A stretch of 64,000 nt of DNA from a virus (taxonomy: Duplodnaviria; Heunggongvirae; Uroviricota; Caudoviricetes): positions 51,659 through 115,658 of the IMG/VR virus record IMGVR_UViG_3300035698_009402; one strand, 5' to 3'. The position numbers and the translations under genes were made by a program. Positions 1-32,136 of this stretch are shown one piece after another. Under the pieces are notes generated by a model, which did not search any database, was not told where the DNA came from, and saw nothing but the letters and a program-made list of their open reading frames with translations. How positions within the stretch are numbered: position 1 is the first letter of the stretch; each line of letters begins with the position of its first letter.

Positions 1-315
1 ATTAGCCTTAAAACTAGGTTTGTTACTTATTAATTCCAGAAGGTTTTTAACTCCTAATAGATTGCTATTAAAAAATTCATCACTACTAATAATACTATTA
101 TCTACATGACTTTCTGCAGCTAAATTGAATATAATATCACAATCAGGAAGATACTTTATATCTTTAATATCTTCATTAATATCGCTATTTCTATAAAAGT
201 TATTACTACAATAGCTTCCTTTGTCTATAGTAAATACATTATATATCATATTTAATCTATTAGTTAAGTGAGAACCTATAAACCCTCTATTACCTGTAAC
301 TATTACTTTTTTCAT
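1..315 (-). CDS. NAD-dependent sugar-nucleotide dehydratase/epimerase, N-terminal part (gene runs off the window start)
   Basis: Minus-strand ATG at 315 gives MKKVIVTGNRGFIGSHL...LAAESHVD; Rossmann GxxGxxG and dTDP-glucose-4,6-dehydratase-like motifs. Confidence 0.55.
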   Translation of the reverse strand, partial: MKKVIVTGNRGFIGSHLTNRLNMIYNVFTIDKGSYCSNNFYRNSDINEDIKDIKYLPDCDIIFNLAAESHVDNSIISSDEFFNSNLLGVKNLLELISNKPSFKAN

Positions 316-1306
316 TATTTTTTCTTTTTATACTTTCTATTATTTTCTCAATGTCAGAATATTCTAACTGATAATGCAGCGGATAGCATAACATTTTATT
401 ATATAATTTAGTAGTATTGGTCATAGCTACTATAGGTTTATAATATTTTTTAATTTCTATTAAAGAATCTTTTTCATCAATATGTTCTCTATTTTTAAAT
501 ATCAAAGGCAAACAACTAGATATTTTTGGATCATTAGTTCTACCTAAACATTCTACACCTAAGTATTCTACTTCATTTAAAATAATATCTTGATATATTT
601 TTAGTGTTTTAGATACTTTATCTAATTCAGGATATTGCATTACATATTGTAAATTACCTGCAGCAGCTAATTCGCTTTGTTTGTAATTTCCACCTCTAAT
701 ATACTCATCAGGTATATTAAAATTAACTAATTTTCTAGCTTTATCTTCATATTCTTTATCAACTATTAATAGTCCACCTTCGCCAAACCCTAAAGCCTTT
801 GTATGATGTAAACTAACTACAGACATTTTATGATTATTTATAATGTTGCTGCCACCAAAAAAGGTATAAGGAGCTGCTGCAGCGTCTAATAAATCAGAAG
901 GTTTTTCTACATTTATAAATGTATCTAAATAATATCCGAAATACGCAACTATTAAATCATGACTTCCAGATACTTCATCTTTTACAATTACATTGTTTAA
1001 TAATCCCGCACTTCTAAAATTAAAAGAAGAAGTAGTTAAGCTTCTACCTAATAATCTTTCTGCAATTAATAAAGCAGAGGTAGCACTATTAACCATAATT
1101 ACTGATTTTGAAGAAGATATTTTTAACTTGTCTTTAAAGTATTTCTCTGCTCTTTGTACTACCGGCCCATAGTTAGCATAATGATTAAGTTTATCACTGT
1201 CTGTAAGAATATACTCCAATAATTTATAATTTATGTGCTTTTTAGGTAAAAAACTTATTCTATATTGTTCCATACGAATTCCCAATCTATCCCCGGCGAT
1301 ATGCAA
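290..1306 (-). CDS. DegT/DnrJ/EryC1/StrS-family PLP-dependent sugar aminotransferase
   Basis: 338 aa ORF; family-typical motifs incl. SLHHTKALGFGEGG lysine region; true start may be the internal Met (MEQYRIS) at ~1273. Confidence 0.65.
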   Translation of the reverse strand: MHIAGDRLGIRMEQYRISFLPKKHINYKLLEYILTDSDKLNHYANYGPVVQRAEKYFKDKLKISSSKSVIMVNSATSALLIAERLLGRSLTTSSFNFRSAGLLNNVIVKDEVSGSHDLIVAYFGYYLDTFINVEKPSDLLDAAAAPYTFFGGSNIINNHKMSVVSLHHTKALGFGEGGLLIVDKEYEDKARKLVNFNIPDEYIRGGNYKQSELAAAGNLQYVMQYPELDKVSKTLKIYQDIILNEVEYLGVECLGRTNDPKISSCLPLIFKNREHIDEKDSLIEIKKYYKPIVAMTNTTKLYNKMLCYPLHYQLEYSDIEKIIESIKRKNNEKSNSYR

Positions 1307-2004
1307 TTATTTTGTAAGTGAGTAGTTGTTGAGGGGATAGGGCATACACAAATATTTTGTTTAAATACCTTCCAAGTCCAACTATCCTCTGCAAATACTC
1401 CCGCTCTTTGTAAATCTATTTTATACTGTTTAAATGTTTTGGCTTTAGCAATCATAGTTAAAGTACTACTAGGTACTGTTCTATAATGTTGTCCATCTAT
1501 ATTAAATAGTTCACATAATTTACTTCTATCTATAGTATACCTGTCTGGATAATCATATGGTAAGTAAAATCCATTATATCCTTTAGAAAATAAAGTAACT
1601 AAAGTTTTTCTCCAACCTGTGTTATGTAAGTAATCATCCTCACATATATAAACTAATTCATCTTCAAGAGTTTCTATAGTATCTAAAAAGTACTTAATAA
1701 AGTCTATACAATGATTTACAGCAGTATAGTGATACTCCTTGTAAGGATGATCGTATTCTGCTAATGCGGGAATATCTTTAATAACTAGGTTACAATGACT
1801 ATTATCTGTAAACCATTTTTTAGTTTCTTCAGTAACATTATCACAAACAATATGAACGGTATCATTATAAGATAACTCGTTAAGTAAACTTATCCAACAT
1901 TTTTTCATTATTTCCGGTTTTGTATATTCTAACCATCGTTTTTGTTTTCCACCCAAACTTCCTGGACTTAAATTAGTTTCACAAGCCCTAAAAAATACTA
2001 ACAA
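1255..2004 (-). CDS. hypothetical protein, possible glycosyltransferase of the sugar-modification cluster
   Basis: 249 aa ORF co-oriented inside the sugar-nucleotide gene cluster; acidic EDD motif; no firm family match by eye. Confidence 0.35.
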   Translation of the reverse strand: MLVFFRACETNLSPGSLGGKQKRWLEYTKPEIMKKCWISLLNELSYNDTVHIVCDNVTEETKKWFTDNSHCNLVIKDIPALAEYDHPYKEYHYTAVNHCIDFIKYFLDTIETLEDELVYICEDDYLHNTGWRKTLVTLFSKGYNGFYLPYDYPDRYTIDRSKLCELFNIDGQHYRTVPSSTLTMIAKAKTFKQYKIDLQRAGVFAEDSWTWKVFKQNICVCPIPSTTTHLQNNCISPGIDWEFVWNNIE

Positions 2005-2650
2005 CTTCTACTCCTTTATTTACTCGCACACGTTTATTATGAGGTATACTAGATCTTAAAGTTATCCCCGCAGTAACGCTATTATTATGTCCCAAAGTAA
2101 CCTTAGGCAATATCATTACGCCTGCTCCTATAAAATTATCATTTTTTATTTTTACATGACCTAAAGCACATACATAGGGACAAAATACATTAAAATCACC
2201 TACAACCACATCATGACATAAATCGCATCCTATATTAAATAGATTATAATTACCTATAACAACATCCGTACTAGCTACAAGAGTTTTAGGACAAAAAACA
2301 TTACCTCTACCAATAGTACTTTGAATAGTATTAGGTATAAAATTCGTGAAGTAAAAATTAGGAAATAGTAGATCTAATTCATAATCTTCAAAAAATTTTT
2401 CGAATATTCTAACTATTCCTTGTCTTAAAGGTACTTCTCCTACTGCTAATATTATTTTATCTTCTATACTATTAATATTAGATATATTATAAGTGTTACT
2501 TACATTATTAACATCAATTAACATTTTACTTTCTAAATCTATATCTACTACTATAGGAGTAATATACGTATTAGTTAATATAAAATCATCTAGATATGTT
2601 CTTATCTCCTTATAAAACCCGCCACTACCTATTATAAATAATCTGCTCAT
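1988..2650 (-). CDS. hexapeptide-repeat sugar N-acetyltransferase (NeuD/PglD-like)
   Basis: N-terminal IIGSGGFYKEI like NeuD IIGAGGHAK; left-handed beta-helix hexapeptide repeats in the C-terminal half. Confidence 0.6.
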   Translation of the reverse strand: MSRLFIIGSGGFYKEIRTYLDDFILTNTYITPIVVDIDLESKMLIDVNNVSNTYNISNINSIEDKIILAVGEVPLRQGIVRIFEKFFEDYELDLLFPNFYFTNFIPNTIQSTIGRGNVFCPKTLVASTDVVIGNYNLFNIGCDLCHDVVVGDFNVFCPYVCALGHVKIKNDNFIGAGVMILPKVTLGHNNSVTAGITLRSSIPHNKRVRVNKGVEVVSIF

Positions 2651-3384
2651 TAAACCCTCTCATCTATTGTTCTATATAATTCTGTATGTTCCCATAATTC
2701 TAATAATATTTTTAAGTTATGACTCCAATAATTATTATATTTACTATCACTTTTCATAATTTGTTTATTATCTTTACTTTCATGGTGAATTAAAGTTATT
2801 GGTGTTTGTAGTATATCCCATCCCTTGCTGCGAGCTTTTAAACAATAATCTACATCTCTGTTATAAGTCCATAAATATCTTCTATCAAAATTACCAACAT
2901 CATTTATAACTTGTCGTCTGATATAAATACCACCAAAGGTAGTCCAAGCTACTTTTCTGAGAAAATCATATTGTCCCACATCTTCTTCCGGTTCTTTGAA
3001 AAAAGATTGGCTATCAATATCTATGCCGCTTCCAAAATGGTCAGGACGATTATTAACAAATTTACCTCCTGCACTTTGCACATATGTTTTACCTTCTAAT
3101 TCTGGATACAATAATTTACATCCGAACATACCGTAATTCATATAATCATCTGATTTAGCTAAATCACATAAATCATAATACCATTGGTTATTAGAATCTA
3201 TAGGCATCATATCACTGTGTAAAATTATCACATCACTGTCACAATTATTCCACATCTTTTCAAACATTAAGTCACTACCTATTTTTTTAGTATCTTGCAT
3301 AAATAAACAAGGTATATTATATAATCTTTGTCGTAATTCAGATATTTCCAATTCATTTACATAAGGTATTATAACTAACGTCAT
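2650..3384 (-). CDS. family-2-like glycosyltransferase
   Basis: N-terminal LVIIPYVNE, DSDVIILHSD (DxD-like), DVDYCLKARSKGWDI typical of GT-A/GT2 folds; ATGA overlap with the upstream gene. Confidence 0.5.
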   Translation of the reverse strand: MTLVIIPYVNELEISELRQRLYNIPCLFMQDTKKIGSDLMFEKMWNNCDSDVIILHSDMMPIDSNNQWYYDLCDLAKSDDYMNYGMFGCKLLYPELEGKTYVQSAGGKFVNNRPDHFGSGIDIDSQSFFKEPEEDVGQYDFLRKVAWTTFGGIYIRRQVINDVGNFDRRYLWTYNRDVDYCLKARSKGWDILQTPITLIHHESKDNKQIMKSDSKYNNYWSHNLKILLELWEHTELYRTIDERV

Positions 3385-3385
3385 C

Positions 3386-4399
3386 TTATATTAACCGCTC
3401 TTTCCAAGTAGCAGGAGTTTTTTCTGTAATAAATTCTAAATCAAGATGATAGTCAAAAGGTTTAGCTCCTTGATTTCTAATCCATCCTACTAAAGATTTT
3501 ATAGTATCTTCAGTACTTATTTTTTGTTCATAATCTAATCTTACTTTAGCTTTACCGCTAGAACAATGAGCATGTTTTACTTCATTAGGTCTATGTTCGT
3601 AATATTCAAATTCAGGATAAATATCTAAACTTCTAGCTACAATAAATCCTAGTTCCTTTATAGTAATTGCATTCTTATCTGGTCCTATATTAAATATTTG
3701 ACCAGTTTCAAACTTTCCATCTACTAACTTCCTAATAGCTGCTACACAGTCTCTAACATCACTAAAACTTCTAGTTTGACTACCGTCACCATAAATAACT
3801 ATAGGCTTATTTTGTAATAATCTATTAGCCATAATACTTGCAACATTTCTATAAGGATCTGTGTATCTTTGTCCCGGCCCTACTATGTTGTGAGGTACTA
3901 CATGATTTACTCTAATACCATGAATACTGCTCAATAAATTTAATTGTTGTTCTGCGTGAAGTTTAGCTAATCCATAAGGGTCTGCAGGTTTGCATTTCAT
4001 ATTTTCTTTAAAAGGCGCTTCTATATCTCCATACCTAGCCATACTGCTACAGTTTATAAATAGTTCTACATTATTATGTATAGCTGCGCTAGCCACACTT
4101 ACAGTTCCTGTAAAAATACTTTCAGTTACTAATTTAGGGCTAAACACGCTTAGACCTTCATAAGGTAAACTAGCACAATGAATAACTACATCAATGTCAT
4201 TATTCATATGTTCTTTTAACTTATTTAATTGTAATATATCAAGATACTCAAAAGCTTTTAAATCTTTCAATGGTATGTTGGATTTATAACCTCCAATTAA
4301 ATTATCACAACCAGATACTGTATATCCGTTACTAATAAAATATTTTGCTAAGTTAGAACCCATTAATCCGGCTACCCCGGTAATATAAATATTTTTCAT
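3386..4399 (-). CDS. NAD-dependent epimerase/dehydratase (SDR family, UDP-sugar 4-epimerase-like)
   Basis: ITGVAGLMGSNL Rossmann motif; YGLAKLHAEQ (YxxxK catalytic motif); 337 aa. Confidence 0.7.
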   Translation of the reverse strand: MKNIYITGVAGLMGSNLAKYFISNGYTVSGCDNLIGGYKSNIPLKDLKAFEYLDILQLNKLKEHMNNDIDVVIHCASLPYEGLSVFSPKLVTESIFTGTVSVASAAIHNNVELFINCSSMARYGDIEAPFKENMKCKPADPYGLAKLHAEQQLNLLSSIHGIRVNHVVPHNIVGPGQRYTDPYRNVASIMANRLLQNKPIVIYGDGSQTRSFSDVRDCVAAIRKLVDGKFETGQIFNIGPDKNAITIKELGFIVARSLDIYPEFEYYEHRPNEVKHAHCSSGKAKVRLDYEQKISTEDTIKSLVGWIRNQGAKPFDYHLDLEFITEKTPATWKERLI

Positions 4400-4435
4400 T
4401 TAATCTTATTAAAAAAGGCGGGAGTAAATCCCACC

Positions 4436-5131
4436 TTAATCTACCTCCCTGCAATAACCTGCTTGTGCAGGAAATGCTGAAGAAACCTTATCTACATAAT
4501 TACTATGTATATTAATTCCCATTTTTTGTAGTGTTTTTCTAGTTCTGTAGTAAAGTTCAAAAATACTTACAGGATTCTCAGAATTTCTATAAAAATAAGT
4601 ACTAGTAACTTTACTATATTCAGGAACCCCCATATTAGTACCTACATCTGCAGTGTTTAATAACGTAGAATTAGGAGTTCTATAAACGGTTTTCTTAACA
4701 AGAGGTACAGTATAGGAATCAAATATCATATCAGAAAATACAGTATTCTTTTCTGGAAATATAGCTACTCCAATAACTCCTAAATTACTAGAACCTTCAC
4801 CCAGCTTTACAGCATAACTATTAGATACATTTTCATCAAATTGAAATCTTCTTTCAGTTTCACTATTTACTCTAAAACCTTTTACTATTATACTAGATTC
4901 TTTATTTATTATGTAACCTCTATTCGAAAATTTACCTGTAGATCCATTAACGACGTCTAACCCATCTACTGTTATTAAAGCTTCTATTCTAAAGTTATTT
5001 CTATTTTCTATTTTTATAGAATAATTAAATCCTTGTCTTGATTCTATATAAGTATTTCTATCTTTATTATATTCAGTAAAGGTATTATCATTATCAGTAA
5101 CAACACTAACTTTTACATTATTTTTATACAT
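4436..5131 (-). CDS. hypothetical protein
   Basis: 231 aa ORF, co-oriented, last gene of the leftward block; no recognisable motif. Confidence 0.45.
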   Translation of the reverse strand: MYKNNVKVSVVTDNDNTFTEYNKDRNTYIESRQGFNYSIKIENRNNFRIEALITVDGLDVVNGSTGKFSNRGYIINKESSIIVKGFRVNSETERRFQFDENVSNSYAVKLGEGSSNLGVIGVAIFPEKNTVFSDMIFDSYTVPLVKKTVYRTPNSTLLNTADVGTNMGVPEYSKVTSTYFYRNSENPVSIFELYYRTRKTLQKMGINIHSNYVDKVSSAFPAQAGYCREVD

Positions 5132-5225
5132 ATTTTCTCCTTTACTTCATATGTTTACTTGTATCTACATTGATACTATATTAAGTATATTTGTATTTTA
5201 ACCAGATTGCAAAATAAATTTTAAT

Positions 5226-5474
5226 TTATCTATCTTTTCGTATTTTTCTATAATGAGTCTGATCATCATTCTGCAACTTTTGTAGTCTTTCTTTACGTTC
5301 TTTAGCTACTCGTTTAGCACTTTGCAAATCTGCTAATCTTCTTTTTTGAGATTTACTAGTATAATACTTCTTATCCTTCATAGTTTGAAAGAAGTTTTCT
5401 TTTCCTAACTTTTTCATCAAAGATTTGTATGCTTTATTTACATTATTATTTCTTACTTTTACTTTCATATCCAT
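5226..5474 (-). CDS. rpsU: ribosomal protein bS21 homologue (phage-encoded)
   Basis: 82 aa very basic protein; KVKVRNNNVNKAYKSLMKKLGKE...KKYYTSKSQKRR aligns with the bS21 pattern (VxVRENE..AL.RFKR...EfYEKPS.rRKR). Confidence 0.5.
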   Translation of the reverse strand: MDMKVKVRNNNVNKAYKSLMKKLGKENFFQTMKDKKYYTSKSQKRRLADLQSAKRVAKERKERLQKLQNDDQTHYRKIRKDR

Positions 5475-5785
5475 CCAATTTCATATAAGGTCATTAGTAC
5501 TGTATCATTAGAAAATTTACCTTCTAGCTTAAATACTAGCTGTTCATTTTTTAAATATAAGAAAGTAGGGTATTTTGCTATAGAAAATTTATCGTCATAA
5601 ACTTTATTATTTACTTCAGTAGAAATTCCTAAACTTGCTAACTTATCCATTTCATATCTTACATATGTTTCTGTATTAGCATTGTAGTATCCTACTACTT
5701 TAGTTATATTTTTTTTTATTACTTTTATTTTAGACTTTTGCAAATCAGTTAAAGGTAATAGGTTTATTATAGAATCTTTATTCAT
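5465..5785 (-). CDS. hypothetical protein (thioredoxin-like fold? no CxxC)
   Basis: 106 aa ORF overlapping the bS21 gene start (ATGA); weak thioredoxin-like C-terminal pattern. Confidence 0.35.
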   Translation of the reverse strand: MNKDSIINLLPLTDLQKSKIKVIKKNITKVVGYYNANTETYVRYEMDKLASLGISTEVNNKVYDDKFSIAKYPTFLYLKNEQLVFKLEGKFSNDTVLMTLYEIGWI

Positions 5786-5834
5786 TATTTACTTTAAATA
5801 GTGTGGAAAACTATTTGTCTCCTTAAAATAAGAT

Positions 5835-5863
5835 TTGCTTACTTGCCAAAAATTTGTGATAAT
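5835..5863 (+). promoter_or_regulatory. sigma70-like promoter TTGCTT-N17-GATAAT at the divergence point between leftward and rightward gene blocks
   Basis: TTGCTT at 5835-5840, 17-nt spacer, GATAAT at 5858-5863; first rightward CDS at 5968. Confidence 0.4.
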
Positions 5864-5967
5864 TGTTTTATCGCAGTAATTTATACATTGTATAAAAAAA
5901 AGCTGCGTAAGGCAACCAGTTTTTTAAAAAATTTTTAAAACTGTTATTACAATTATCAGGAGAATAA

Positions 5968-6168
5968 ATGAATTATACTAAGCTATCAGAAGCTAAACAA
6001 TATTTTTACGCAGCTAGAGAACAAGAAATACCAATGGCTGTGGATATTCTAAATGACTATGAAGAATTACTTGACATGGGGCAAGATTTTGCGGCTAATC
6101 ATATGTTATTAGAAATTTATAAACAAGTATTACTAATTGAAAAGGATGATATTAATGTCAACACGTAA
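5968..6168 (+). CDS. hypothetical protein
   Basis: 66 aa; first rightward gene after the promoter at 5835; AGGAG-like RBS. Confidence 0.4.
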   Translation: MNYTKLSEAKQYFYAAREQEIPMAVDILNDYEELLDMGQDFAANHMLLEIYKQVLLIEKDDINVNT

Positions 6169-14987: not shown

Positions 14988-16598
14988 ATGAAAGTAGGTA
15001 TTGCACAATGCAATTTTGTTGTAGGGGATATCCCCGGCAACTATGAAAAAATAGTCAAAATTTGGGATGAGAAAGATAACGAAGATTTCGACGTTATTTT
15101 ATTTAGCGAGCTTTGCCTAACAGGTTATCCTGCACAGGATCTGCTGTTAGACAAGGCTTTTTTGTGTTTGGAGCGAGAATATCATTATAAATTACTTGCT
15201 AAACGTAATTATATGAAAACAAGCATTATTCTTGGATTATGCTTGTTGTCTCATACGTCTAAAATATATAATAGTGCTAATCTTATTTCTAATAAAGATT
15301 TAGGTAAAGCTATTGTAAAAACATATCTTCCTAACTATGATGTATTCGACGAAAAAAGATATTTCACTGGATATGGAATAAATGAGTACAATAATATCAT
15401 TGAAATAGTTGATAAAAAATTTGCAGTATTAATCTGTGAAGATGCTTGGGAAATAACTGACGAAGAATTACAAAAGTTATCTGGAGTATTTGGAATATTT
15501 ATCATTAATGCAAGTCCTTGGGATACTTCTAAAATCAACAATAGACTTAGATTAGCGAAGAAATTATCTAAGAAATTAGATTGTTTTGTGTTTTATGCAA
15601 ATCAAGTAGGTGGTCAAGATGAGTTAGTATTTGATGGTACTAGTTTCATTATGAATAACTTACAAGGTATTGAAGCTCAAGCTAAATCTTTTGAAGAAGA
15701 TTTTATTGAGTTAGATTTTAGTAAAACAAGCATTAAACATAATTACATGTTAGGGATAGGAAACTATTCTCAAATGCTAAGAAAAGCCTTAGTACTAGGT
15801 ACTCGCGATTATTTTAGAAAGAATAATTTTAATAAGGCAGTTATAGGTATTAGTGGTGGAGTTGATAGCGCCTTAGTTGCAGATATAGCTGTTGAAGCGT
15901 TGGGTGCAGAAAATGTTCTTGGAATTGGGATGATGACAAAATTTAATAGTCCTCTCACTTTAAAATTAGCTAGAGATTTATGCGTCCAACTAGGAATTAC
16001 TTATAAAGAAATGGATATTAGTAAAATCATTGACGTATTCAGTGATGAATTAGATTATTCCACAGTTGTTCCAAACTTAAAAATGAGCGGGGTACCTTAC
16101 GAGAACATCCAATCTCGAATTAGAGGAAACATTCTCATGGCGATTTCCAATTCACAAAATGCATTAGTATTAAGTACAGGTAATAAGTCAGAAGTGGCAA
16201 TGGGATATTCCACCCTGTATGGGGATATGGTAGGGGGATTTAATCCCTTAAAAGATGTATACAAAACAGATGTATTCAATTTATCTAGACTAAGCAATAA
16301 AATTCCTTCAGAGATTGTTACTAGACCTCCTACTGCGGAATTAGCAGAAAATCAATTAGATAGTGATAAATTACCTGAGTATAGTAAATTAGACGTTATA
16401 CTCAGTATGTATCTTGAAGGAAATAGTAATATTGAGCACGTTACCAGAAGTTATGGAAAAGAACTTGCAGAAAAAGTATATAAAAGCTTAATATTTAATG
16501 AGTATAAGAGACAACAGTCTTGTCCTGGTATTAGAGTTAGTACCAAACATTTGGGCAAAGACCGTCGTTTTCCAATCACTAATCAGTATAAAGGTTAA
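14988..16598 (+). CDS. nadE: glutamine-dependent NAD+ synthetase (N-terminal CN-hydrolase domain + C-terminal NAD synthase)
   Basis: 536 aa; PP-loop GISGGVDSALVA; N-terminal nitrilase-like domain; GGAG RBS. Confidence 0.8.
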   Translation: MKVGIAQCNFVVGDIPGNYEKIVKIWDEKDNEDFDVILFSELCLTGYPAQDLLLDKAFLCLEREYHYKLLAKRNYMKTSIILGLCLLSHTSKIYNSANLISNKDLGKAIVKTYLPNYDVFDEKRYFTGYGINEYNNIIEIVDKKFAVLICEDAWEITDEELQKLSGVFGIFIINASPWDTSKINNRLRLAKKLSKKLDCFVFYANQVGGQDELVFDGTSFIMNNLQGIEAQAKSFEEDFIELDFSKTSIKHNYMLGIGNYSQMLRKALVLGTRDYFRKNNFNKAVIGISGGVDSALVADIAVEALGAENVLGIGMMTKFNSPLTLKLARDLCVQLGITYKEMDISKIIDVFSDELDYSTVVPNLKMSGVPYENIQSRIRGNILMAISNSQNALVLSTGNKSEVAMGYSTLYGDMVGGFNPLKDVYKTDVFNLSRLSNKIPSEIVTRPPTAELAENQLDSDKLPEYSKLDVILSMYLEGNSNIEHVTRSYGKELAEKVYKSLIFNEYKRQQSCPGIRVSTKHLGKDRRFPITNQYKG

Positions 16599-16608
16599 GG
16601 AGATTAAA

Positions 16609-17796
16609 ATGAAATTAACAGAGCAAGAAATCGTAGAACGTACAGATAAATATTTTGTACGTACTAAAAAAGTAGTAGATCACTTCAATAAAGAAATTAT
16701 CGTAAAATATGCAGTATTTATGCGCACAGACGTTCTTGCTGCACTAAATCCTTGTATAGATTTTATTAAGGAACATTGTCCAGATGCTATTATTGAACGT
16801 AAGTTCAATGAGGGGGAGTTTGTTCCCAGTGAAAAGCCTATGATGCATATTACTGGAAAGTTTAGTGATCTAGTTATGTTAGAAACACTACTACTCCAGA
16901 AATTAGGTTTTACGTGTCTTTGTGCGTATAACGCTTATAATATGTCTAAAGCACTTCCACAAGTAGCGTTCATGGATATGCACGCACGTCATGGAACTGG
17001 TGAAGATATGAACCACCTTGCTACTTATGGATGTAGTGTTGGCAGTAAGGTAGCACAGCAAGAAGGTTCCGAAGGTTTTCTGGGAGGTGCGCAAGATATT
17101 ACTGCCAAATACTTCGATAAACTACACGGAATGGGTACTATGCCCCACGCTCTAGTAGGTCTTGCTAAAACTATGTTTCCAGAACGTAATAGTATGGTTG
17201 CAGCAGTTGAGATGTATCTAGAGGCTATGCCTGAAGAAACTAATATTGTAGCACTTGTAGATTATGATGGTAAAGAAATCACAGACGCTTTAGCAGTAGC
17301 CGACTATATGTTAAGTAATCATCCTGAAAAACAATTAAGCATTAGACTAGATACTCATGGTGGTAGATTCTGTGAAACATTAGATTATGCTTCAAGCGTA
17401 AATGTTGTTAGTCAACATATTAGTGATGGTAAAATGACTGAGTATGAAATTATCAGAACAGTTATGGGTGAGACTGCTTTTATGATGGATAGTAATAATA
17501 TTATTAAGGATAAGATCAGAAAGCTTATGTTTGGTACAGGAGTGTCTGCTGCAAACATTATTAATATGAGAAATTACTTGGATGGAGAGGGCTACAATGA
17601 TGTTAGTATTGTAGCGAGTAGTGGATTTGATGTAATCAAATGTGGAGTATTCCGTGAAGCAAACGTTCCAGTGAATATGATTGGTACAGGTAGTTTTCTG
17701 CCTAAGAAATATACTGAAACATATGCTACAGCAGATATTATCGAATATAATGGAATTAAGAGTGTTAAAGTTGGAAGGGAATTTTTAAATGACTAA
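16609..17796 (+). CDS. pncB: nicotinate/nicotinamide phosphoribosyltransferase-family enzyme (NAPRTase-like)
   Basis: 396 aa from ATG 16609 (AAGGAGA RBS); size and motifs consistent with type II PRTase of the NAPRT/NAMPT family; sits between nadE and Nudix/NMNAT. Confidence 0.6.
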   Translation: MKLTEQEIVERTDKYFVRTKKVVDHFNKEIIVKYAVFMRTDVLAALNPCIDFIKEHCPDAIIERKFNEGEFVPSEKPMMHITGKFSDLVMLETLLLQKLGFTCLCAYNAYNMSKALPQVAFMDMHARHGTGEDMNHLATYGCSVGSKVAQQEGSEGFLGGAQDITAKYFDKLHGMGTMPHALVGLAKTMFPERNSMVAAVEMYLEAMPEETNIVALVDYDGKEITDALAVADYMLSNHPEKQLSIRLDTHGGRFCETLDYASSVNVVSQHISDGKMTEYEIIRTVMGETAFMMDSNNIIKDKIRKLMFGTGVSAANIINMRNYLDGEGYNDVSIVASSGFDVIKCGVFREANVPVNMIGTGSFLPKKYTETYATADIIEYNGIKSVKVGREFLND

Positions 17797-18238
17797 ACCA
17801 TTCATGTGTATTAGTGCAAGTACTACGGTAGTAACTTGTTGGTTAAAGCCTACTGCTAAGCCGGGTAGAGAATTTGTACTTATTGGATATAGGAGTGATG
17901 AAGCAGACGCTTTTCCTGGAGCACCTTGTCTGCCCGGAGGTATGAAAGATAAGGGCGAAAACCTAAAACAGTGCGCTAAGAGAGAACTATTAGAAGAAAC
18001 AGGGTTAGATGTTCCTATTAATAAATTTAGTTTTATCGAACAGTATAGTGATCCAGGCATTGATCCAAGAGGTGAGGTAATTAGTACTACTTGGAGAGTA
18101 GATCTTGGAGAACTTCTTAGAGTTCCTAGAGTTGCAGGAGCTGATGATATTAAAGAAGCTAAGTGGGTTCTTTATAAAGAAGCTATGGAAATGGAACTAG
18201 CTTTTAATCATAATCAAATGCTAAAGGATAGTTATTAA
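17789..18238 (+). CDS. Nudix hydrolase (NAD+/ADP-ribose pyrophosphatase-like)
   Basis: Nudix box GGMKDKGENLKQCAKRELLEETGL (Gx5Ex7REUxEExGU). Confidence 0.65.
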   Translation: MTKPFMCISASTTVVTCWLKPTAKPGREFVLIGYRSDEADAFPGAPCLPGGMKDKGENLKQCAKRELLEETGLDVPINKFSFIEQYSDPGIDPRGEVISTTWRVDLGELLRVPRVAGADDIKEAKWVLYKEAMEMELAFNHNQMLKDSY

Positions 18239-18393
18239 TGGATAAAAGATTAAAAGATAGTAGAGATACTCAAAGAGAATTACTTGAATTAGCTGAATAC
18301 TTATATGAAGAAGTAGACAAAGACGGTTTTGTACGTATTTCAGCAACTGAAGTAGCTTTTAAAATCAATAGCTGTTTATATGAGAGGATCTAA
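18238..18393 (+). CDS. small hypothetical protein (51 aa)
   Basis: ATG overlaps the Nudix stop (TAATG); its stop overlaps the next ATG; fills the gap in the operon. Confidence 0.3.
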   Translation: MDKRLKDSRDTQRELLELAEYLYEEVDKDGFVRISATEVAFKINSCLYERI

Positions 18394-18896
18394 TGAAAGT
18401 AGGTTTAGCAATTATGCGTATGCAGCCTATGCATAAAGCGCATATCAATTTAATTAATCAAATGAATAGTTACTGTGAAACCAGTATCATAGGGTTAGGA
18501 AGCGCACAAGCTTTTGATGAATGGAATCCTTTCACAGTAGAACAACGAACAGATATGATACGAAACGTATTTGGAGATAGAGTAAAAATAGTACCTCTAG
18601 TTGATGTTGGTACTAATAAAGGTACTGATGAGTGGATTAAATATGTAATTGATAAGACAACAAAAATAGGATTACCTAACCCCACAGAGTATTTTAGCGG
18701 TAGTGAAGCTGATAGTGTTTGGTATAAATCTCATTTTGGTACTAAATTGCATATTATGCCTAGAGAAATGTTTGTACATCCAAGTGCTAGTGAAGTTAGA
18801 ACCTTACTAGCAGCAGGTGATACAGCTTGGAAAAAATATATTCCAAGAGTAAATTGGGAAATTGTAAACAATTACCCAGATGATTTCAAATTATAA
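18393..18896 (+). CDS. nicotinamide/nicotinate mononucleotide adenylyltransferase (archaeal-type NMNAT)
   Basis: MRMQPMHKAH matches the archaeal NMNAT (H/T)xGH-type motif GRFQPFHKGH; 167 aa cytidylyltransferase fold. Confidence 0.6.
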   Translation: MKVGLAIMRMQPMHKAHINLINQMNSYCETSIIGLGSAQAFDEWNPFTVEQRTDMIRNVFGDRVKIVPLVDVGTNKGTDEWIKYVIDKTTKIGLPNPTEYFSGSEADSVWYKSHFGTKLHIMPREMFVHPSASEVRTLLAAGDTAWKKYIPRVNWEIVNNYPDDFKL

Positions 18897-18908
18897 GGAG
18901 ACATAGTT

Positions 18909-19493
18909 ATGAAAAAATTATATGTATTGATTGACTGGCAAAATGATTTTGCCAAAAAAGACGGAGCATTGTATGTTCCTAATAATATTAAAGATAAAGA
19001 TATGCATACCTTTTTATGGCGAGGATGTATGTCTAGAGATAGTGTAGGAGTAATGTCTACCCTAGACACTCATTATGAAAATGTTTATCCTAGATTAGAG
19101 GAAAGTAAGCATTTTCCTATTCACTGTATTAAAAACACTTGGGGTTGGGAAAAAGCAGATTCCAAACAATGGGGACTACATAAGATGCATAATCATTGGT
19201 ACATGGAAAAAAATGTATTTAATATGTGGGAGCAACCTGATCTTCTTATACAAGATAATAATACTTTATTTGATATGGTAGATAGAGATATGTTTTTCTA
19301 CTTTTTACGAAAACACGCAGGAGTAAAGGAAATTCATATTGCAGGATTAGCAGCAGATTATTGTGTTAAGTGGGCTATTGAGGGGTTTGTTGAACGTAAG
19401 TTCAACGTGGTGGTACATAAAAATCTTACTGCACATATTAAAACACCTATTGAAGAAGTAGTTAAAAACATGAGAAACGTAAAATTAGTTTAG
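18909..19493 (+). CDS. pncA: nicotinamidase / isochorismatase-family hydrolase
   Basis: N-terminal LYVLIDWQNDF (isochorismatase family VIDMQNDF); catalytic Cys in AADYCVKWA. Confidence 0.6.
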   Translation: MKKLYVLIDWQNDFAKKDGALYVPNNIKDKDMHTFLWRGCMSRDSVGVMSTLDTHYENVYPRLEESKHFPIHCIKNTWGWEKADSKQWGLHKMHNHWYMEKNVFNMWEQPDLLIQDNNTLFDMVDRDMFFYFLRKHAGVKEIHIAGLAADYCVKWAIEGFVERKFNVVVHKNLTAHIKTPIEEVVKNMRNVKLV

Positions 19494-24374: not shown

Positions 24375-25559
24375 ATGAAACAATTATATAATCAAACATC
24401 AAAGATAATGGGAATTAGTGGAGAAACTTATTATACTGTTGACGGATCTATTAGTCATGTACTATTAGATCATATGATACCCGCTGGAGACCCTATTACA
24501 TTAATTACTAGAAATCATCCTAGTACAAAAATAATAGTTCATTTACCTCCCGGAGCTATATGGGATCAGACAGACGACCCTAATACTCCCGAAGATGAAA
24601 AAACTTCTGCACGACAGATAGGCCCTCAATCCTGTCAGAAAATATTTAGAAGAAGCACTGGATTATTCAATTTTATTGAAAATATTCCAGATGTTAGTTC
24701 TGAGCCAAAACCTGCTTTTGATAAAGTTATGATAGTAGCAGGGCAAAGTTTAGCAAAACCTTTTCACAATGATTATAGTTATAATGGGTTAGCAGAAAAT
24801 ACTAATTCTAAAATAAACATTATAAACGCCGCTTACGGTGGGAGTAGTGTTTTTCAAACAGGATCTAGTACTAATTACTGGTTAGAAAGTGATTTAAGTA
24901 ATGGTCCTAGACTTACAGAATCTATAGCAAATATACAAGGACATACTGCTGACTATATTTTTTGGTCTCAGGGAAACGGGGATACTCTTAATTTACGAAA
25001 TGAAGAATATACTGCTAGTAAGTATGCTGAGGGAGTATTAAAGATACTAACAGTGTTGGGTCATCCAAATATACCTGTTTATGTACAAAATGTAAGTTAT
25101 ACTAGAAATGTTTCATTAAGTTCTGGTTTTGAGAAATTAAGAGAAGCATATAGACAAGTTAAAGCAGTTAATAATATATTTATGTACGATAATTACGATA
25201 TTATTTCTACAGATGGTACTCATCCAGATATTAGCAGTAAAATAATAGCAGGAAAAAGATTAGCTAAAGTAATATCAGGTACGGACAGTCAACCTTATGT
25301 TACTAGTAAAGTTAACATAGCAGATAATATAACTAATTTAACTTTTAGTGAAATTCTTAAGCCTGTTAGTTTCAGGGGTTTACATTCTACTAGTAATATA
25401 GATAAATTAATTTGGCTAAATTATACTACTTTACAAATACATCACGCACCAGAAACGGTAGTTCCTGTATTTAGTTACCCATACGGTAGTGGGTGGGATT
25501 TAGATTTATCAGATATACCCAGTAATAATGATTTTTGTTTACAAAGCTTTAAGGTATAA
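24375..25559 (+). CDS. SGNH/GDSL-family hydrolase-like protein (possible virion-associated esterase)
   Basis: 394 aa; DGTHPD (SGNH block V DGxHP), FWSQGNGD and AGQSLA blocks. Confidence 0.45.
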   Translation: MKQLYNQTSKIMGISGETYYTVDGSISHVLLDHMIPAGDPITLITRNHPSTKIIVHLPPGAIWDQTDDPNTPEDEKTSARQIGPQSCQKIFRRSTGLFNFIENIPDVSSEPKPAFDKVMIVAGQSLAKPFHNDYSYNGLAENTNSKINIINAAYGGSSVFQTGSSTNYWLESDLSNGPRLTESIANIQGHTADYIFWSQGNGDTLNLRNEEYTASKYAEGVLKILTVLGHPNIPVYVQNVSYTRNVSLSSGFEKLREAYRQVKAVNNIFMYDNYDIISTDGTHPDISSKIIAGKRLAKVISGTDSQPYVTSKVNIADNITNLTFSEILKPVSFRGLHSTSNIDKLIWLNYTTLQIHHAPETVVPVFSYPYGSGWDLDLSDIPSNNDFCLQSFKV

Positions 25560-28042: not shown

Positions 28043-28735
28043 ATGAATAAAGAACAATTAGAAAAAGATATCCTAGACGAACAACTATTAGAATACTTAC
28101 CAAATAAAAACGTAGTTTTTGCGGTTTTACACGGTAGCAGGGCTTACGGATTAAGTACTAAAGATAGTGATTATGATGTTAAATTCGTCTGGATTGAAGA
28201 TTATGAAACCTATACAGGAATATCAGAAGTAAAAAATACTGGATATAGCGAACAAAAGGATAATGTAGACGTAAGCGGTTGGGAATTGAAGCATTTTCTT
28301 AATTTAGTTAGAAAAAATAATATGACTACTATGGAAACTTTATTTTCTCCTATACTAAGTGTTGATATAGATAACTATTTAACCTTAATTTTAGAAGTTG
28401 CAGCAAACTTTAATAGAAAAAGTTTAGGTATTCAGTATCATAAAGCTAGTAAGAGTTATTACTACAAATACTTAGAAACAAGTAAACTTAAATATTTAAT
28501 TAACTCTTTTAGATGTTTTAATAACGCAGTATATATAAGAAAAAATTGTAAAATACCACCTATTACTGCTAAAGAATGTTATGATAATATCCTTCTTAAG
28601 GGGGTACATTATGATATAACTAACTTTAATACTTTATTAGATGATTTTAATTATGAGTGGTACTCTACAGATCATCAAATAGATACTAAAGTATTAAACG
28701 ATATATTTAGGGAAACAGCTCTTAGCAGTAAATAA
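28043..28735 (+). CDS. Pol-beta-superfamily nucleotidyltransferase-like protein
   Basis: VVFAVLHGSRAYGLSTKDSDYDVKFV = hG[GS]x9-13Dh[DE]h NTase signature. Confidence 0.5.
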   Translation: MNKEQLEKDILDEQLLEYLPNKNVVFAVLHGSRAYGLSTKDSDYDVKFVWIEDYETYTGISEVKNTGYSEQKDNVDVSGWELKHFLNLVRKNNMTTMETLFSPILSVDIDNYLTLILEVAANFNRKSLGIQYHKASKSYYYKYLETSKLKYLINSFRCFNNAVYIRKNCKIPPITAKECYDNILLKGVHYDITNFNTLLDDFNYEWYSTDHQIDTKVLNDIFRETALSSK

Positions 28736-28778
28736 GTATTGCTAAGAACTGTTTTTTCTTATAAAATTATAAATATGT

Positions 28779-28863
28779 TGGGAAGTGGCGGAACTGGTAG
28801 ACGCGCTAGACTGTTAATCTTGTGCCGTAAGGCTTGGGGGTTCGAGACCCTCCTTCTCAGCCA
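28779..28863 (+). tRNA. type-II (Leu-like body) tRNA with Asn-type anticodon loop CUGUUAA (GUU), anticodon assignment uncertain
   Basis: TGGGAAGTGGCGGAACTGGTAGACGCG closely resembles a bacterial tRNA-Leu 5' half; anticodon stem CTAGA/TCTTG (one mismatch), loop CTGTTAA; 12-nt variable hairpin GCC-GTAA-GGC; T-arm GGGGG-TTCGAGA-CCCTC; G + CCA. Confidence 0.5.
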
Positions 28864-28871
28864 AAAATTAT

Positions 28872-28958
28872 TCCTGGGTGGCAGAGCGGTAATGTTCCTC
28901 ACTGTTAATGAGTGGACTTCGTAAGAAGCGTAGGTTCGATCCCTACCCCTAGGAGCCA
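28872..28958 (+). tRNA. type-II tRNA, anticodon loop CUGUUAA (GUU) or alternative fold UAA (Leu); irregular acceptor/T junction
   Basis: Acceptor TCCTGGG/CCTAGGA + G + CCA with one extra nt after the T-stem; variable hairpin CTTC-GTAA-GAAG; T-arm GTAGG-TTCGATC-CCTAC. Confidence 0.4.
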
Positions 28959-28966
28959 AAATTTAT

Positions 28967-29041
28967 AGTAGAGAATCCGATTGGCGAGGAACGCGCCTGA
29001 TTAGCGTGTGGTAGAGGGTTCGATTCCCTCCTCTACGACCA
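28967..29041 (+). tRNA. tRNA, anticodon loop CUGAUUA -> GAU (Ile?), pyrimidine at 37
   Basis: Acceptor AGTAGAG/CTCTACG (A1-G72 mismatch) + A + CCA; anticodon stem CGCGC/GCGTG; T-arm GAGGG-TTCGATT-CCCTC. Confidence 0.5.
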
Positions 29042-29061
29042 AATATACTAAAGGAAAATAT

Positions 29062-29475
29062 ATGACTCGTATTAATATAGTTGATCCTATAGAATTAATG
29101 GATCAACATTTAGTAGCTGAATATAGAGAAATCTTGATGATAGGATCTTCATTACAACGGTCTTTAAGAGGTAAGAGTTGGAATAAGAATAAGATACCTG
29201 ACTCATTCAGATTAAATAAAGGTCATGTATTATTTTTCTACGATAAAGGTCTATATTTACAAAAACGGTATGAACAATTAAGAAATGAAATGATTAGGAG
29301 AGGAATGTCTCCTAATCCCGATAGAAAATTCAATGTAGAGTGTTTTCCTAATTTCATATATAGAAATGATTGGACTCCTTCCGACAAAGATAGAAACATT
29401 ATTAGAGAACGATTATCTTTTAGGATATCAGAAAAACCTAATTGGTATAGATATGAGGGTAAATTAGTTGAGTAG
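29062..29475 (+). CDS. denV: pyrimidine-dimer DNA glycosylase (T4 endonuclease V family)
   Basis: MTRINIVDPIELMDQHLVAEYREI closely matches T4 EndoV [24 protein letters not shown]; start trimmed to ATG 29062 to clear the tRNA at 28967-29041. Confidence 0.7.
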   Translation: MTRINIVDPIELMDQHLVAEYREILMIGSSLQRSLRGKSWNKNKIPDSFRLNKGHVLFFYDKGLYLQKRYEQLRNEMIRRGMSPNPDRKFNVECFPNFIYRNDWTPSDKDRNIIRERLSFRISEKPNWYRYEGKLVE

Positions 29476-29540
29476 CTCAATGATAGAGCAGGGTCCTGAT
29501 AAGACCAAGACTTAAGGTTCGATTCCTTTTTTAGCTACCA
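29466..29540 (+). tRNA. tRNA-Ile (anticodon GAU)
   Basis: TAGCTCAATGATAGAGC D-arm; anticodon arm GGGTC-CTGATAA-GACCA; T-loop TTCGATT; A + CCA; 5' end abuts the denV stop. Confidence 0.6.
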
Positions 29541-29563
29541 ATTTAAACGTAGTTTAATATACT

Positions 29564-29719
29564 ATGTGTTTATACTGTAAATCTAAAGAAAAATATAAAA
29601 GAAGTAAAAGAAGTAAATTAGTGCATTATGAATTTGTTTGTAATGATTGCTTTGATGCTGAAAATAAAATGTTACAGCTAACATATCAAAAATATAAAGA
29701 ATATTTAAACGGAGTTTAA
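29564..29719 (+). CDS. small zinc-ribbon-like hypothetical protein (51 aa)
   Basis: CLYC...CNDC paired Cys motifs. Confidence 0.35.
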   Translation: MCLYCKSKEKYKRSKRSKLVHYEFVCNDCFDAENKMLQLTYQKYKEYLNGV

Positions 29720-29862
29720 TAACGTGGAATATAATATAGACAAAGGTATAATTATAGAACAGTTAACTCAGGTTATAGAGTCTATGAGTGGTAAAGATTT
29801 AATAAAACTATATAACGAGCATTTTGATACAAATCATTATGCAGATGAATACGGATATATTT

Positions 29863-30336
29863 ATGAAAAACGATAATATTATATTTTTAGACATGGATGG
29901 AGTTTTAGCTAGTGCTAGAATCTTTCATGCAGCTAATGATTCGGGTATGTGGAGCAGTATTGATATTCATGCTGCTAAATTTTTGGACCGAATTTGTTAT
30001 AAGTGGCCAGCTAAAATTGTTATTAGTAGTACTTGGAGATATTTAACAGATCAAAAAAACTGGCCTTATATTTTTCAAGGAACTGATTTGTATAGTCATT
30101 TTCATAATCAGTGGAAAACTCCTAGAACTGACAAAGGATTTAGAGGCGATGATATTAATAAATGGATGGATTCAGTAAATTTCAAAGGAAACTATCTAAT
30201 TTTTGACGACAGTAGCGATTTTTACGACGATCAAAAGAAAAATATGATTCACACTGATGTAGATGATGGTATGCTTACTAAACATTATAGACAGACAATT
30301 GACTTATTATATGGAAGATATGGTGTTAAATTATGA
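29863..30336 (+). CDS. HAD-superfamily hydrolase-like protein
   Basis: Motif I IIFLDMDGVLAS (DxDG[VT]L) near the N-terminus. Confidence 0.4.
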   Translation: MKNDNIIFLDMDGVLASARIFHAANDSGMWSSIDIHAAKFLDRICYKWPAKIVISSTWRYLTDQKNWPYIFQGTDLYSHFHNQWKTPRTDKGFRGDDINKWMDSVNFKGNYLIFDDSSDFYDDQKKNMIHTDVDDGMLTKHYRQTIDLLYGRYGVKL

Positions 30337-30746
30337 GACGAGTAACTTTAAAAGAAAAAATAATGAACGCTACGATTGAAGAATGTAATTTATCTATAGA
30401 TGAAGGGTTTTTAACTTTATGGTTGACTCTAAAATTAGAAGATGGTTTTTCAAAAGCTTTTGGCGGATATAATTTAGGAAAAACATGTTCTTTCTTCACA
30501 GACGAAGTAAAACTTTTTAATAAACAAGATTTTTTATCAGATAATAAAGATAATTGTAATTTGGCTAATTGGTTTATTAACAGTTGTATGTATACTGTAG
30601 GAGTACATAATTTAAAAGATTTTAAAGGTAAAAATATTAGAATCAAGGTAGAAAATCCAGGATTTGGACGAACTATTGTAAGAATTGGTCATATTATCGA
30701 AGATAAATGGTTTTTCCCTAAAGAAGATAGAGAGTTATTACAATGA
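30333..30746 (+). CDS. hypothetical protein
   Basis: 137 aa ORF; ATGA overlap. Confidence 0.4.
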   Translation: MRRVTLKEKIMNATIEECNLSIDEGFLTLWLTLKLEDGFSKAFGGYNLGKTCSFFTDEVKLFNKQDFLSDNKDNCNLANWFINSCMYTVGVHNLKDFKGKNIRIKVENPGFGRTIVRIGHIIEDKWFFPKEDRELLQ

Positions 30747-30913
30747 TTTTAGTAATTCCAGATAATTTTGAATGTGATACAGAATTATTAATTAAATGTG
30801 ATGTAATTATAGAAATTACGAATAATAAATATATTATTACAAAAAACAGAAACGGCCTTTCAGGTGATTCTTTTGAATCATTGGAAAAGGTACTTGAATG
30901 TATAGGAAAATAA
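30743..30913 (+). CDS. small hypothetical protein (56 aa)
   Basis: ATG overlapping the upstream stop; fills the gap before rtcB. Confidence 0.3.
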   Translation: MILVIPDNFECDTELLIKCDVIIEITNNKYIITKNRNGLSGDSFESLEKVLECIGK

Positions 30914-30914
30914 A

Positions 30915-32135: not shown

Positions 32136-32136
32136 T

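Follow-up and report, generated by a model that had tools for sequence, protein, structure and literature searches.

A candidate 4-acetamido-4,6-dideoxyhexose pathway with a Mimivirus L136-type aminotransferase in the sugar island of an uncultured tailed phage

Which sugar do the leftmost genes of a 64,000-nucleotide stretch of Caudoviricetes DNA (IMG/VR record IMGVR_UViG_3300035698_009402; the whole stretch is hereafter the window) build, and onto what would it be placed? An initial annotation had described a leftward gene set comprising a 4,6-dehydratase, a DegT-family aminotransferase, a hexapeptide acetyltransferase, a GT2-like transferase and a second short-chain dehydrogenase/reductase (SDR), and had proposed a viosamine or Qui4NAc-type pathway. 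Profile searches bear out these family guesses, and all seven open reading frames (ORFs) of positions 1-5131 are real, lie on the minus strand and keep essentially their original coordinates. Six of them are sugar genes that abut or overlap within 1-4399 (start/stop junctions 3386/3384, 2650/2650, 2004/1988, 1273/1255 and 315/290), and the packing from 4399 down to 1 is operon-like. Positions refer to the whole window, and the sugar genes are listed from right to left; NDP stands for nucleoside diphosphate, PLP for pyridoxal phosphate and AF2 for AlphaFold2.

3386-4399, minus strand: extended SDR resembling NDP-sugar 4-epimerases (SDR2; Pfam Epimerase and PDB matches)
2650-3384, minus strand: predicted GT-A-fold glycosyltransferase GTA5, 244 residues (AF2 model and Foldseek)
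1988-2650, minus strand: putative N-acetyltransferase of the NeuD/PglB/PglD/VioB type with a left-handed beta-helix (Pfam Hexapep, TIGR03570)
1255-2004, minus strand: predicted GT-A-fold glycosyltransferase GTA3, 249 residues, TTG start (AF2 model and Foldseek)
290-1273, minus strand: putative DegT-type PLP sugar 4-aminotransferase of the L136 subfamily, 327 residues (an alternative TTG start at 1306 would give 338)
1-315, minus strand: putative RmlB/R141-type NDP-glucose 4,6-dehydratase (SDR1), N-terminal 105 residues; ATG at 315, the gene leaving the window at its left edge

The nature of the sugar is indicated by three of these enzymes. The dehydratase fragment carries a TGNRGFIGSH Rossmann motif at residues 7-16, of the extended-SDR GxxGxxG kind, together with AAESHVD; it matches Pfam Epimerase at 3e-16 over profile positions 1-104, and its best NCBIfam match is TIGR01181 (dTDP-glucose 4,6-dehydratase). 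A full-length ortholog in a syntenic contig (L002:10950-11882), in which the catalytic STDEVYG and YAASK motifs are seen, matches TIGR01181 at 2.9e-78, its 263 bits lying under the equivalog cutoff of 365 and far ahead of any other family. The ten best PDB matches of this ortholog are all dTDP-glucose 4,6-dehydratases (8e-60 to 2e-38), Mimivirus R141 (6vlo) being among the top matches at 1.7e-40, and epimerases appear only from 3.5e-21. By these family matches the predicted dehydratase is clearly RmlB/R141-like, not PglF- or PseB-like, and its substrate would therefore, from established knowledge of the family, be an NDP-glucose instead of UDP-GlcNAc.

The aminotransferase matches Pfam DegT_DnrJ_EryC1 at 1.8e-13 (50.9 bits against a cutoff of 19.8), and its best PDB match is Mimivirus L136 (7mfo; 2.4e-28, residues 16-323). 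K159, within an HHTK motif, is invariant in 20 homologs and aligns with the PLP lysine of L136, for which the second L136 sequence (7mfp, 7mfq) has another residue. A profile of the family matches L136 at 9e-108 over positions 3-341 of 344, the next structure following at 3e-33 and all other solved sugar aminotransferases at 1.8e-20 or worse. Orthologs in syntenic contigs are 59% (P0001, L002) and 46% (P0002) identical. The L136-like subfamily comprises 581 cluster representatives at E ≤ 1e-30 among 1.84 billion, and a pattern-limited scan of 185,579 species genomes returned only four cellular relatives, which are weak. Several members are natural fusions, with PglD_N plus Hexapep, GNAT or Methyltransf_24 domains and even with a beta-keto-acid cleavage enzyme domain (P0293, P0286, P0310, P0409, P0278, P0346 and P0297). 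These fusions lend independent support to N-acylation after amination and to methylation tied to the same sugar, and they suggest diverse unexplored amino-sugar tailoring pathways.

The acetyltransferase displays the left-handed beta-helix repeats of Pfam Hexapep (1.2e-9; 37.8 bits against a cutoff of 27) and matches TIGR03570 (NeuD/PglB/VioB) at 2.7e-22, its residues 3-208 covering profile positions 1-196 of 202. Its best solved relatives, WeeI (4m9c), VioB (7txp) and PerB (4ea7), are all 4-amino-sugar N-acetyltransferases. H146 (LCHDVVVGD) aligns with AHDCVIGD of WeeI and SHGVILGD of VioB, and from PglD chemistry we take this turn histidine to be the catalytic base. A parallel is His136 of Mimivirus N-L142 (PMC9614988).

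Read together, the three enzymes very probably specify the conversion of NDP-glucose, through 4-keto-6-deoxy and 4-amino intermediates, into an NDP-4-acetamido-4,6-dideoxyhexose, and by analogy with L136 the product is most likely Vio4NAc (Qui4NAc). The pathway proposed in the initial annotation is thereby strengthened by all three assignments: the aminotransferase profile points to L136, the acetyltransferase to WeeI, VioB and PerB, and the dehydratase to RmlB and R141. Profile searches could have placed either the aminotransferase or the acetyltransferase in an unrelated family; they sharpened both assignments instead. The early comparison with giant viruses was apt.

How the sugar would be transferred is suggested by the two small ORFs. 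The AF2 model of GTA5 (pLDDT 96.2) finds ppGalNAc-T2/T3, GlfT2, majastridin and STIV A197 as its top Foldseek matches in the PDB (E about 1e-6, TM up to 0.68), and D51, H56, D58 and H200 are invariant in 287 homologs; by sequence it has no Pfam or NCBIfam match at cutoff, just sub-threshold GT2 signals. The model of GTA3 (pLDDT 90.6) ranks GnT-I, the glycosyltransferase (GT) domain of LH3, GnT-II, AvpGT, TarS and WrtF at the top; in its EDDYLH motif D123, D124, Y125, L126 and H127 are invariant and E122 nearly so (56 homologs), and its sequence has no match in Pfam or the PDB. More than 90 PDB structures match the GT-A models at E ≤ 1e-3 with glycosyltransferases ranked top, so that these high-confidence models indicate two GT-A-fold glycosyltransferases with conserved candidate DxD-type acidic/His motifs. 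Both fall outside the curated GT families, with sub-threshold Glyco_tranf_2_3, rhamnosyltransferase and MftF signals only. The lower-ranked structural matches of GTA3 include nucleotidyltransferases (IspD, KdsB, UGPase); from the motif and the ranking of matches we favour a transferase, which, its gene lying among those of the three pathway enzymes, is presumed to act on the 4-acetamido sugar. The GT2-like transferase of the initial annotation thus gains a modelled GT-A fold, and one of the two proteins that it had left unassigned becomes a predicted glycosyltransferase, the other, a DUF7918 protein, probably standing outside the system (see below).

SDR2 matches Pfam Epimerase at 3.4e-44, and its best PDB matches are UDP-glucose, UDP-GlcA and UDP-GlcNAc 4-epimerases (2e-28 to 7e-23). 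It has GVAGLMG, CSSMARYG and Y142xxxK146 and is without the dehydratase Asp-Glu pair; a role as a second dehydratase or as a decarboxylase was rejected on the absence of the Asp-Glu/Glu signature and on these epimerase matches. As a separate observation on GTA3, its best BFVD match, A0A218MKF4 from an uncultured virus, is 45% identical and fused to a cytidylyltransferase-like domain, a fusion through which that phage's transferase may be tied to the step that activates its donor.

The continuation of the locus past the left edge was inferred from relatives and from a gapped 6.1-kb scaffold. This scaffold, 99.9% identical to window positions 2234-3776, bears homologs of two proteins, p256 and p272, past a 3,245-N gap. 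In the syntenic contigs L002 and L003 the dehydratase is followed by an 81-residue membrane protein, a 256-residue protein (p256), a 272-residue protein (p272) and a GT4 enzyme, and beyond GT4 stand Fe-S, PC4, deoxynucleoside monophosphate (dNMP) kinase and NAD-ligase genes. By Pfam scan p256 belongs to a Methyltransf_24 family (19 of 22 members) and p272 to a Glyco_tranf_2_4, GT2-like family (24 of 26); against the PDB, their profiles gave weak matches only (methyltransferase 0.1; ThuS 0.011; GmaR 0.068). The 81-residue protein, the sole membrane protein of the island, has one very hydrophobic segment (KD19 3.18) and lies between dehydratase and methyltransferase (L002:11882-12127), with a small ORF in the same position in L003, L005 and L006; no transmembrane (TM) segment occurs in any of the enzymes.

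The Pfam annotation of L002, L003, L005 and L006 contains no sugar nucleotidyltransferase, phosphoglycosyl transferase (PGT), Wzx or Wzy, and Pfam and NCBIfam scans of window ORFs 1-5785 revealed no initiating PGT, flippase or ABC transporter, and no polymerase or ligase. Leftward extension, which the initial annotation had looked to for the whole dehydratase and for a nucleotidyltransferase, thus supplied the former in L002 and, in the syntenic relatives, not the latter. With none in the operon or in its syntenic relatives, the pathway must start from host NDP-glucose. We do not take this to refute the pathway, because the published listing of the nine-gene Mimivirus cluster names no nucleotidyltransferase either (PMC9614988).

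To place the island among its relatives, 84 related loci, 80 of them IMG/VR contigs chosen for a GTA5 homolog, were surveyed by tblastn, and gene order was counted over the 44 distinct contigs with enough upstream sequence. A four-gene cassette of acetyltransferase, GTA3, aminotransferase and dehydratase is present in 17 of these 44, always in the same order; it stands directly upstream of the core in the IMG/VR relatives and downstream of GTA5 in the window and L002. The almost invariant core consists of SDR2, GTA5, (the methyltransferase,) the GT2-like enzyme and GT4: GTA5, p272 and GT4 are found in 82-83 of the 84 loci (GTA5 in 83, by construction for the 80 IMG/VR loci) and SDR2, directly upstream of GTA5, in 78. 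In other contigs the cassette position is taken by different genes, for example those for methyltransferases or for further DegT and SDR proteins. Between marine and freshwater contigs the identity of the core transferases is about 45-60%, and the recurrence of the gene order in L002, L003 and tens of independent IMG/VR contigs shows that the arrangement is not a product of chance.

We picture the following route. The operon would draw on the host pool of NDP-glucose (UDP- or dTDP-glucose), which the RmlB/R141-type dehydratase (1-315 and beyond) would convert to NDP-4-keto-6-deoxy-glucose; the L136-type aminotransferase would aminate C4 to yield an NDP-4-amino-4,6-dideoxyhexose, most likely viosamine by analogy with L136, and the PglD/VioB-type acetyltransferase would use acetyl-CoA to form NDP-Vio4NAc (Qui4NAc). 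GTA3, encoded inside the cassette, would transfer this acetamido sugar, the pair of SDR2 and GTA5 might add a second, epimerised sugar, and the Methyltransf_24, GT2-like and GT4 enzymes beyond the left edge could complete and methylate a short hetero-oligosaccharide. Soluble enzymes, the absence of lipid-carrier initiation and export genes, and a swappable cassette together argue for cytoplasmic assembly on an acceptor that is conserved and encoded by the phage; a virion protein is the likeliest candidate, and the variable cassette would diversify its exposed sugar. Such an acceptor is favoured because the core transferases are conserved across habitats, export machinery is absent and Mimivirus offers a precedent. 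That phage enzymes build a Vio4NAc-type sugar and place it on a phage-encoded virion protein is, as a whole, a reading to which we give an even chance. Its weakest step is the acceptor, for which we would rank a phage protein ahead of the host envelope, and the envelope ahead of DNA. The wider picture, in which widespread uncultured large aquatic phages coat their virions with a methylated oligosaccharide of bacterial type, using a four-transferase core and a swappable cassette that gives rise to "serotypes", is offered only tentatively.

Several points weigh against this route. The dehydratase fragment in the window ends before the catalytic Thr-Asp-Glu and YxxxK positions, which fall off the left edge; the pairwise match of the window's own aminotransferase to L136 is only moderate (2.4e-28); and the acetyltransferase lies under the curated cutoff of TIGR03570, at 79.4 against 160.8 bits, as a divergent member. 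Neither the C4 configuration (viosamine or its galacto isomer Fuc4N) nor the nucleotide carrier can be read from sequence. A terminator-like hairpin stands ahead of the sugar operon, and the neighbours of the island are genes of early type and of DNA metabolism (PC4, dNMP kinase, ligase) and not structural genes. O-antigen glycosyltransferases, which work on host undecaprenyl-diphosphate (Und-PP) intermediates, are typically soluble too, so that the lack of TM segments in the island enzymes would also suit host-surface remodelling.

Such remodelling of the host envelope would have the soluble glycosyltransferases act on Und-PP-linked O-antigen, capsule or glycoprotein intermediates, with the host's initiating transferase, flippase and ligase doing the rest, and the altered surface of the infected cell could block superinfection or the re-adsorption of progeny. 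The soluble enzymes of the island are compatible with this, its cassette-plus-core layout resembles O-antigen loci, and its location in an early region with a sigma70-like promoter (5915-5887) fits as well. A study of pelagimyophages, a lineage that has S21 and an Asp/Asn beta-hydroxylase in common with the related contigs, proposed the same role for many lipopolysaccharide (LPS)-type glycosyltransferase and sugar genes (PMC7029224). Nevertheless, no PGT, Wzx, Wzy or ligase is found in L002, L003, L005 or L006, the 45-60% identity of the core transferases across marine and freshwater contigs fits badly with hypervariable host acceptors, and four transferases with a methyltransferase would make a whole glycan, not tweak one; we therefore consider envelope remodelling rather unlikely. 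The sugars might otherwise be destined for hydroxymethylated pyrimidines of the phage DNA, as a defence against restriction and CRISPR. Phage GT-A and GT-B enzymes do glycosylate 5-hydroxymethylcytosine with diverse sugars (bioRxiv 10.1101/2023.12.21.572611), and dNMP kinase, PC4 and DNA ligase genes lie just downstream in the relatives; the window also holds a C5-cytosine methylase-like ORF (40518-41177), and the GT4 gene a weak "GT4-conflict" Pfam signal. Yet that ORF is 35 kb off and matches only the first third of its profile, and neither a ThyA-like hydroxymethylase nor a TET/JBP dioxygenase is present among 25 of the 39 Pfam families of the window (those with most matching members) or within 10 kb on either side in L002, L003, L005 and L006. 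To our knowledge, known DNA glycans consist of one to a few sugars, whereas the island has four transferases, a methyltransferase and an N-acetylated amino sugar, and hypermodification of DNA seems very unlikely.

A different question is whether the three pathway enzymes make another product: the C4 epimer (4-amino-4,6-dideoxy-galactose, leading to Fuc4NAc), a sugar with another acyl group added by the beta-helix enzyme, or simply a top-up of a host pathway that yields no phage-specific glycan. Homologs are named "dTDP-4-amino-4,6-dideoxygalactose transaminase" in several sources, the aminotransferase has weak NCBIfam matches to WecE and PseC types alike, and at this degree of similarity to L136 the stereochemistry is not predictable. 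The family profile, on the other side, matches L136 better, by at least 70 orders of magnitude, than it does solved aminotransferases of the WecE type or any others, and the phage's own dedicated transferases argue for more than a boost to a host pool, so that we regard a different product as distinctly unlikely.

Among known systems, Mimivirus provides the nearest counterpart. There, R141, L136 and N-L142 make UDP-Vio4NAc, with L136 making UDP/dTDP-viosamine; the nine-gene cluster includes five putative glycosyltransferases (L137-L140 and C-L142), a methyltransferase, R132, was added to it later, and the glycans sit on virion fibrils (PMC9614988). The phage locus follows the same three-step chemistry, from 4,6-dehydratase to PLP 4-aminotransferase to PglB/PglD-like acetyltransferase; its aminotransferase falls into the narrow subfamily of L136, and its pathway genes are likewise clustered with several glycosyltransferases and an S-adenosylmethionine-dependent methyltransferase, a nucleotidyltransferase being listed in neither. 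It differs in having a tailed-phage-like genome and a bacterial host, a dehydratase ortholog nearer to prokaryotic RmlB (8e-60) than to R141 (1.7e-40), and a stand-alone acetyltransferase where N-L142 is fused to a glycosyltransferase; the phage glycosyltransferases are small GT-A proteins outside Pfam families, and neither a pyruvyltransferase nor a fibril protein was identified. L136 itself has been reported to cluster with unexplained "environmental sequences", apart from the bacterial viosamine synthases (PMC4691112). With the bacterial Qui4NAc/Vio4NAc and bacillosamine routes (RmlB-VioA-VioB; PglF-PglE-PglD; WeeI) the locus has in common an RmlB-type dehydratase and a NeuD/PglB/VioB acetyltransferase with its conserved histidine, but its aminotransferase is of neither the VioA nor the PglE type (L136 scores 9e-108, other solved sugar aminotransferases 1.8e-20 or worse), and it is without RmlA, an initiating PGT, Wzx and Wzy.

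Glycosylated mycobacteriophages reportedly carry one or two glycosyltransferases beside their structural genes and use host sugars, whereas the window has a full sugar-synthesis cassette in a non-structural region. The acceptor proposed here is modelled on their virion glycosylation, which places sugars on capsid and tail-tube proteins by means of phage-encoded glycosyltransferases (Freeman et al. 2023, as cited in PMC12619734). The "moraphages" possess four core glycosyltransferase groups (PMC12619734). Like the present relatives, pelagimyophages and moraphages are large phages of aquatic habitats that encode S21 and have several genes for glycosyltransferases and deoxy-sugars, whose function there is also only inferred; the two studies (PMC7029224, PMC12619734) describe no dehydratase-aminotransferase-acetyltransferase route and no L136-type enzyme.

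Phage sugar and glycosyltransferase genes are already known in general, and every enzyme here is from a known superfamily. What goes beyond routine annotation is that the L136 subfamily links phages with giant viruses, and that many uncultured phages have the layout of a conserved core with a swappable cassette. A full-text literature search found no paper discussing viosamine synthesis in a bacteriophage. Rare bacterial-type sugars made by viruses, and autonomous viral glycosylation, have been demonstrated mainly in giant viruses, and phage sugar genes are usually dismissed as "LPS-related AMGs" (auxiliary metabolic genes). The locus presents a complete and consistent predicted 4-acetamido-4,6-dideoxyhexose route with its own transferase in a phage, within a modular island seen again in dozens of viral contigs from marine and fresh waters, and it yields the testable ideas that large aquatic phages may make their own glycans and that the variable cassette may diversify them. 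The Mimivirus aminotransferase L136 has abundant relatives, some of them in phages and few in cellular genomes as far as the pattern-limited scan extends. Should virions indeed be coated in this way, phages would be a source of, or an exchange partner for, the "environmental" L136 relatives noted in 2012-2015, and phage glycosylation would be linked with that of giant-virus fibrils. For chemoenzymatic synthesis of NDP-Vio4NAc-type sugars, the locus offers a predicted aminotransferase, an acetyltransferase and two small GT-A transferases.

The DNA of the window comes from a phage. Its GC content is about 30%, 122 of its 147 candidate ORFs are co-directional, it has 30 tRNA genes, NAD synthetase (1.8e-120) and RtcB (3e-145) give strong PHROG matches, and Peptidase_M15_3, a SleB-type cell-wall hydrolase, GapR, SprT and HNH are among its Pfam families. 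A giant-virus origin was rejected on the PHROG matches, the peptidoglycan hydrolases, the bacterial S21 and the 122 co-directional ORFs, many of which are short. Relatives, which stem from marine (Tara) and other aquatic metagenomes, occur in IMG/VR contigs of up to 173 kb. Against 50,697 deposited phage records, blastn of window positions 1-6000 gave no match, and tblastn with GTA5, GTA3, p272 and S21 gave at best 23-31% partial matches, with no match for GTA5, p272 and S21, Pelagibacter phages included; the aminotransferase found a match among deposited phages only in the 735-kb huge phage LR756501, which has no other part of the cassette. A look-up of exact proteins returned a 983-bp contig and the gapped 6.1-kb scaffold only, and a query with the aminotransferase gave no relative in IMG/VR. 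S21 and an Asp/Asn beta-hydroxylase are core genes of pelagimyophages (PMC7029224); here S21 is encoded in the window and the beta-hydroxylase in the relatives L005 and L006.

The minus-strand block fills the left 5.8 kb of the window, diverging from plus-strand genes at about 5786-5967, and to the right of the sugar genes it contains the following features.

4437-4415, minus strand: terminator-like hairpin with a 9-bp stem, 5 GC pairs and a T-run, between the DUF7918 gene and SDR2
4436-5131, minus strand: DUF7918 protein (Pfam DUF7918)
5226-5474, minus strand: ribosomal protein S21 (Pfam 2.9e-10; TIGR00030 above cutoff)
5465-5785, minus strand: 106-residue ORF

The same-strand unit begins at about 5915, where the sigma70-like promoter lies, and so also takes in the 106-residue ORF and S21. 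A single operon of seven genes, as initially annotated, therefore holds for the six packed genes and not for the DUF7918 gene, which the hairpin sets apart, and the unit both starts farther right and runs past the left edge. The hairpin may be a partial terminator or attenuator; since only about 15 nucleotides separate it from the SDR2 ATG, transcription of the sugar genes would need either read-through or a promoter within the DUF7918 gene. The DUF7918 gene has a good Shine-Dalgarno sequence (AAAGGAG) and the hairpin immediately 3' of its stop codon, and its product matches Pfam at 1.3e-7 (32.3 bits against a cutoff of 27) and nothing in a PDB sequence search. A role as pathway component or as acceptor was rejected: the hairpin, together with the presence of a homolog in L002 alone among the 84 related loci, speaks against a part in the pathway, and the protein probably does not belong to the sugar system. 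Matches to the T4-type late promoter TATAAATA show no enrichment (23 against 27 expected), which makes them uninformative about the timing of expression. S21 adjoins the sugar island in 34 of the 84 related loci.

Other features accompany the island in some relatives or lie elsewhere in the window. An Asp/Asn beta-hydroxylase-family (2-oxoglutarate oxygenase) gene stands at or shortly after the end of GT4 in two contigs (L005:13775-14398; L006:14005-14685), followed there by a 441-451-residue protein, and is absent from this place in L002; coupling of protein hydroxylation to glycosylation is conceivable in loci of this type. Thirty tRNA genes lie among small ORFs at 21221-55171 on the plus strand (for example 37110-37184) and include one with a CTA anticodon (amber-suppressor, called tRNA-Pyl) and a tRNA-Ile(TAT). 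The CTA anticodon suggested an alternative genetic code, which was rejected: TAG ends the acetyltransferase at a conserved length and serves as a stop elsewhere. In the same tRNA region the methylase-like ORF at 40518-41177 (plus strand, 219 residues) matches positions 1-113 of 324 of the C5-cytosine DNA methylase profile and may be a truncated or split methylase. A block resembling NAD synthesis or salvage (14988-19493, plus strand) comprises a glutamine-dependent NAD synthetase (14988-16598), a 432-residue protein with a weak QRPTase_N match (16498-17796) and an isochorismatase/nicotinamidase-like protein (18909-19493), and a NUDIX protein is also encoded in the window. An RNA-repair set (28043-32799, plus strand) contains an RlaP nucleotidyltransferase (28043-28735), an RtcB ligase (30915-32135) and a metallophosphoesterase (32137-32799); a HAD_SAK_2 domain protein is encoded at another place in the window, and the relative L002 has a TROVE/Ro60 protein. 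Finally, a 394-residue protein (24375-25559, plus strand) has a SASA domain, of the sialate O-acetylesterase type of carbohydrate esterase (1e-8), and could be a glycan-deacetylating enzyme.

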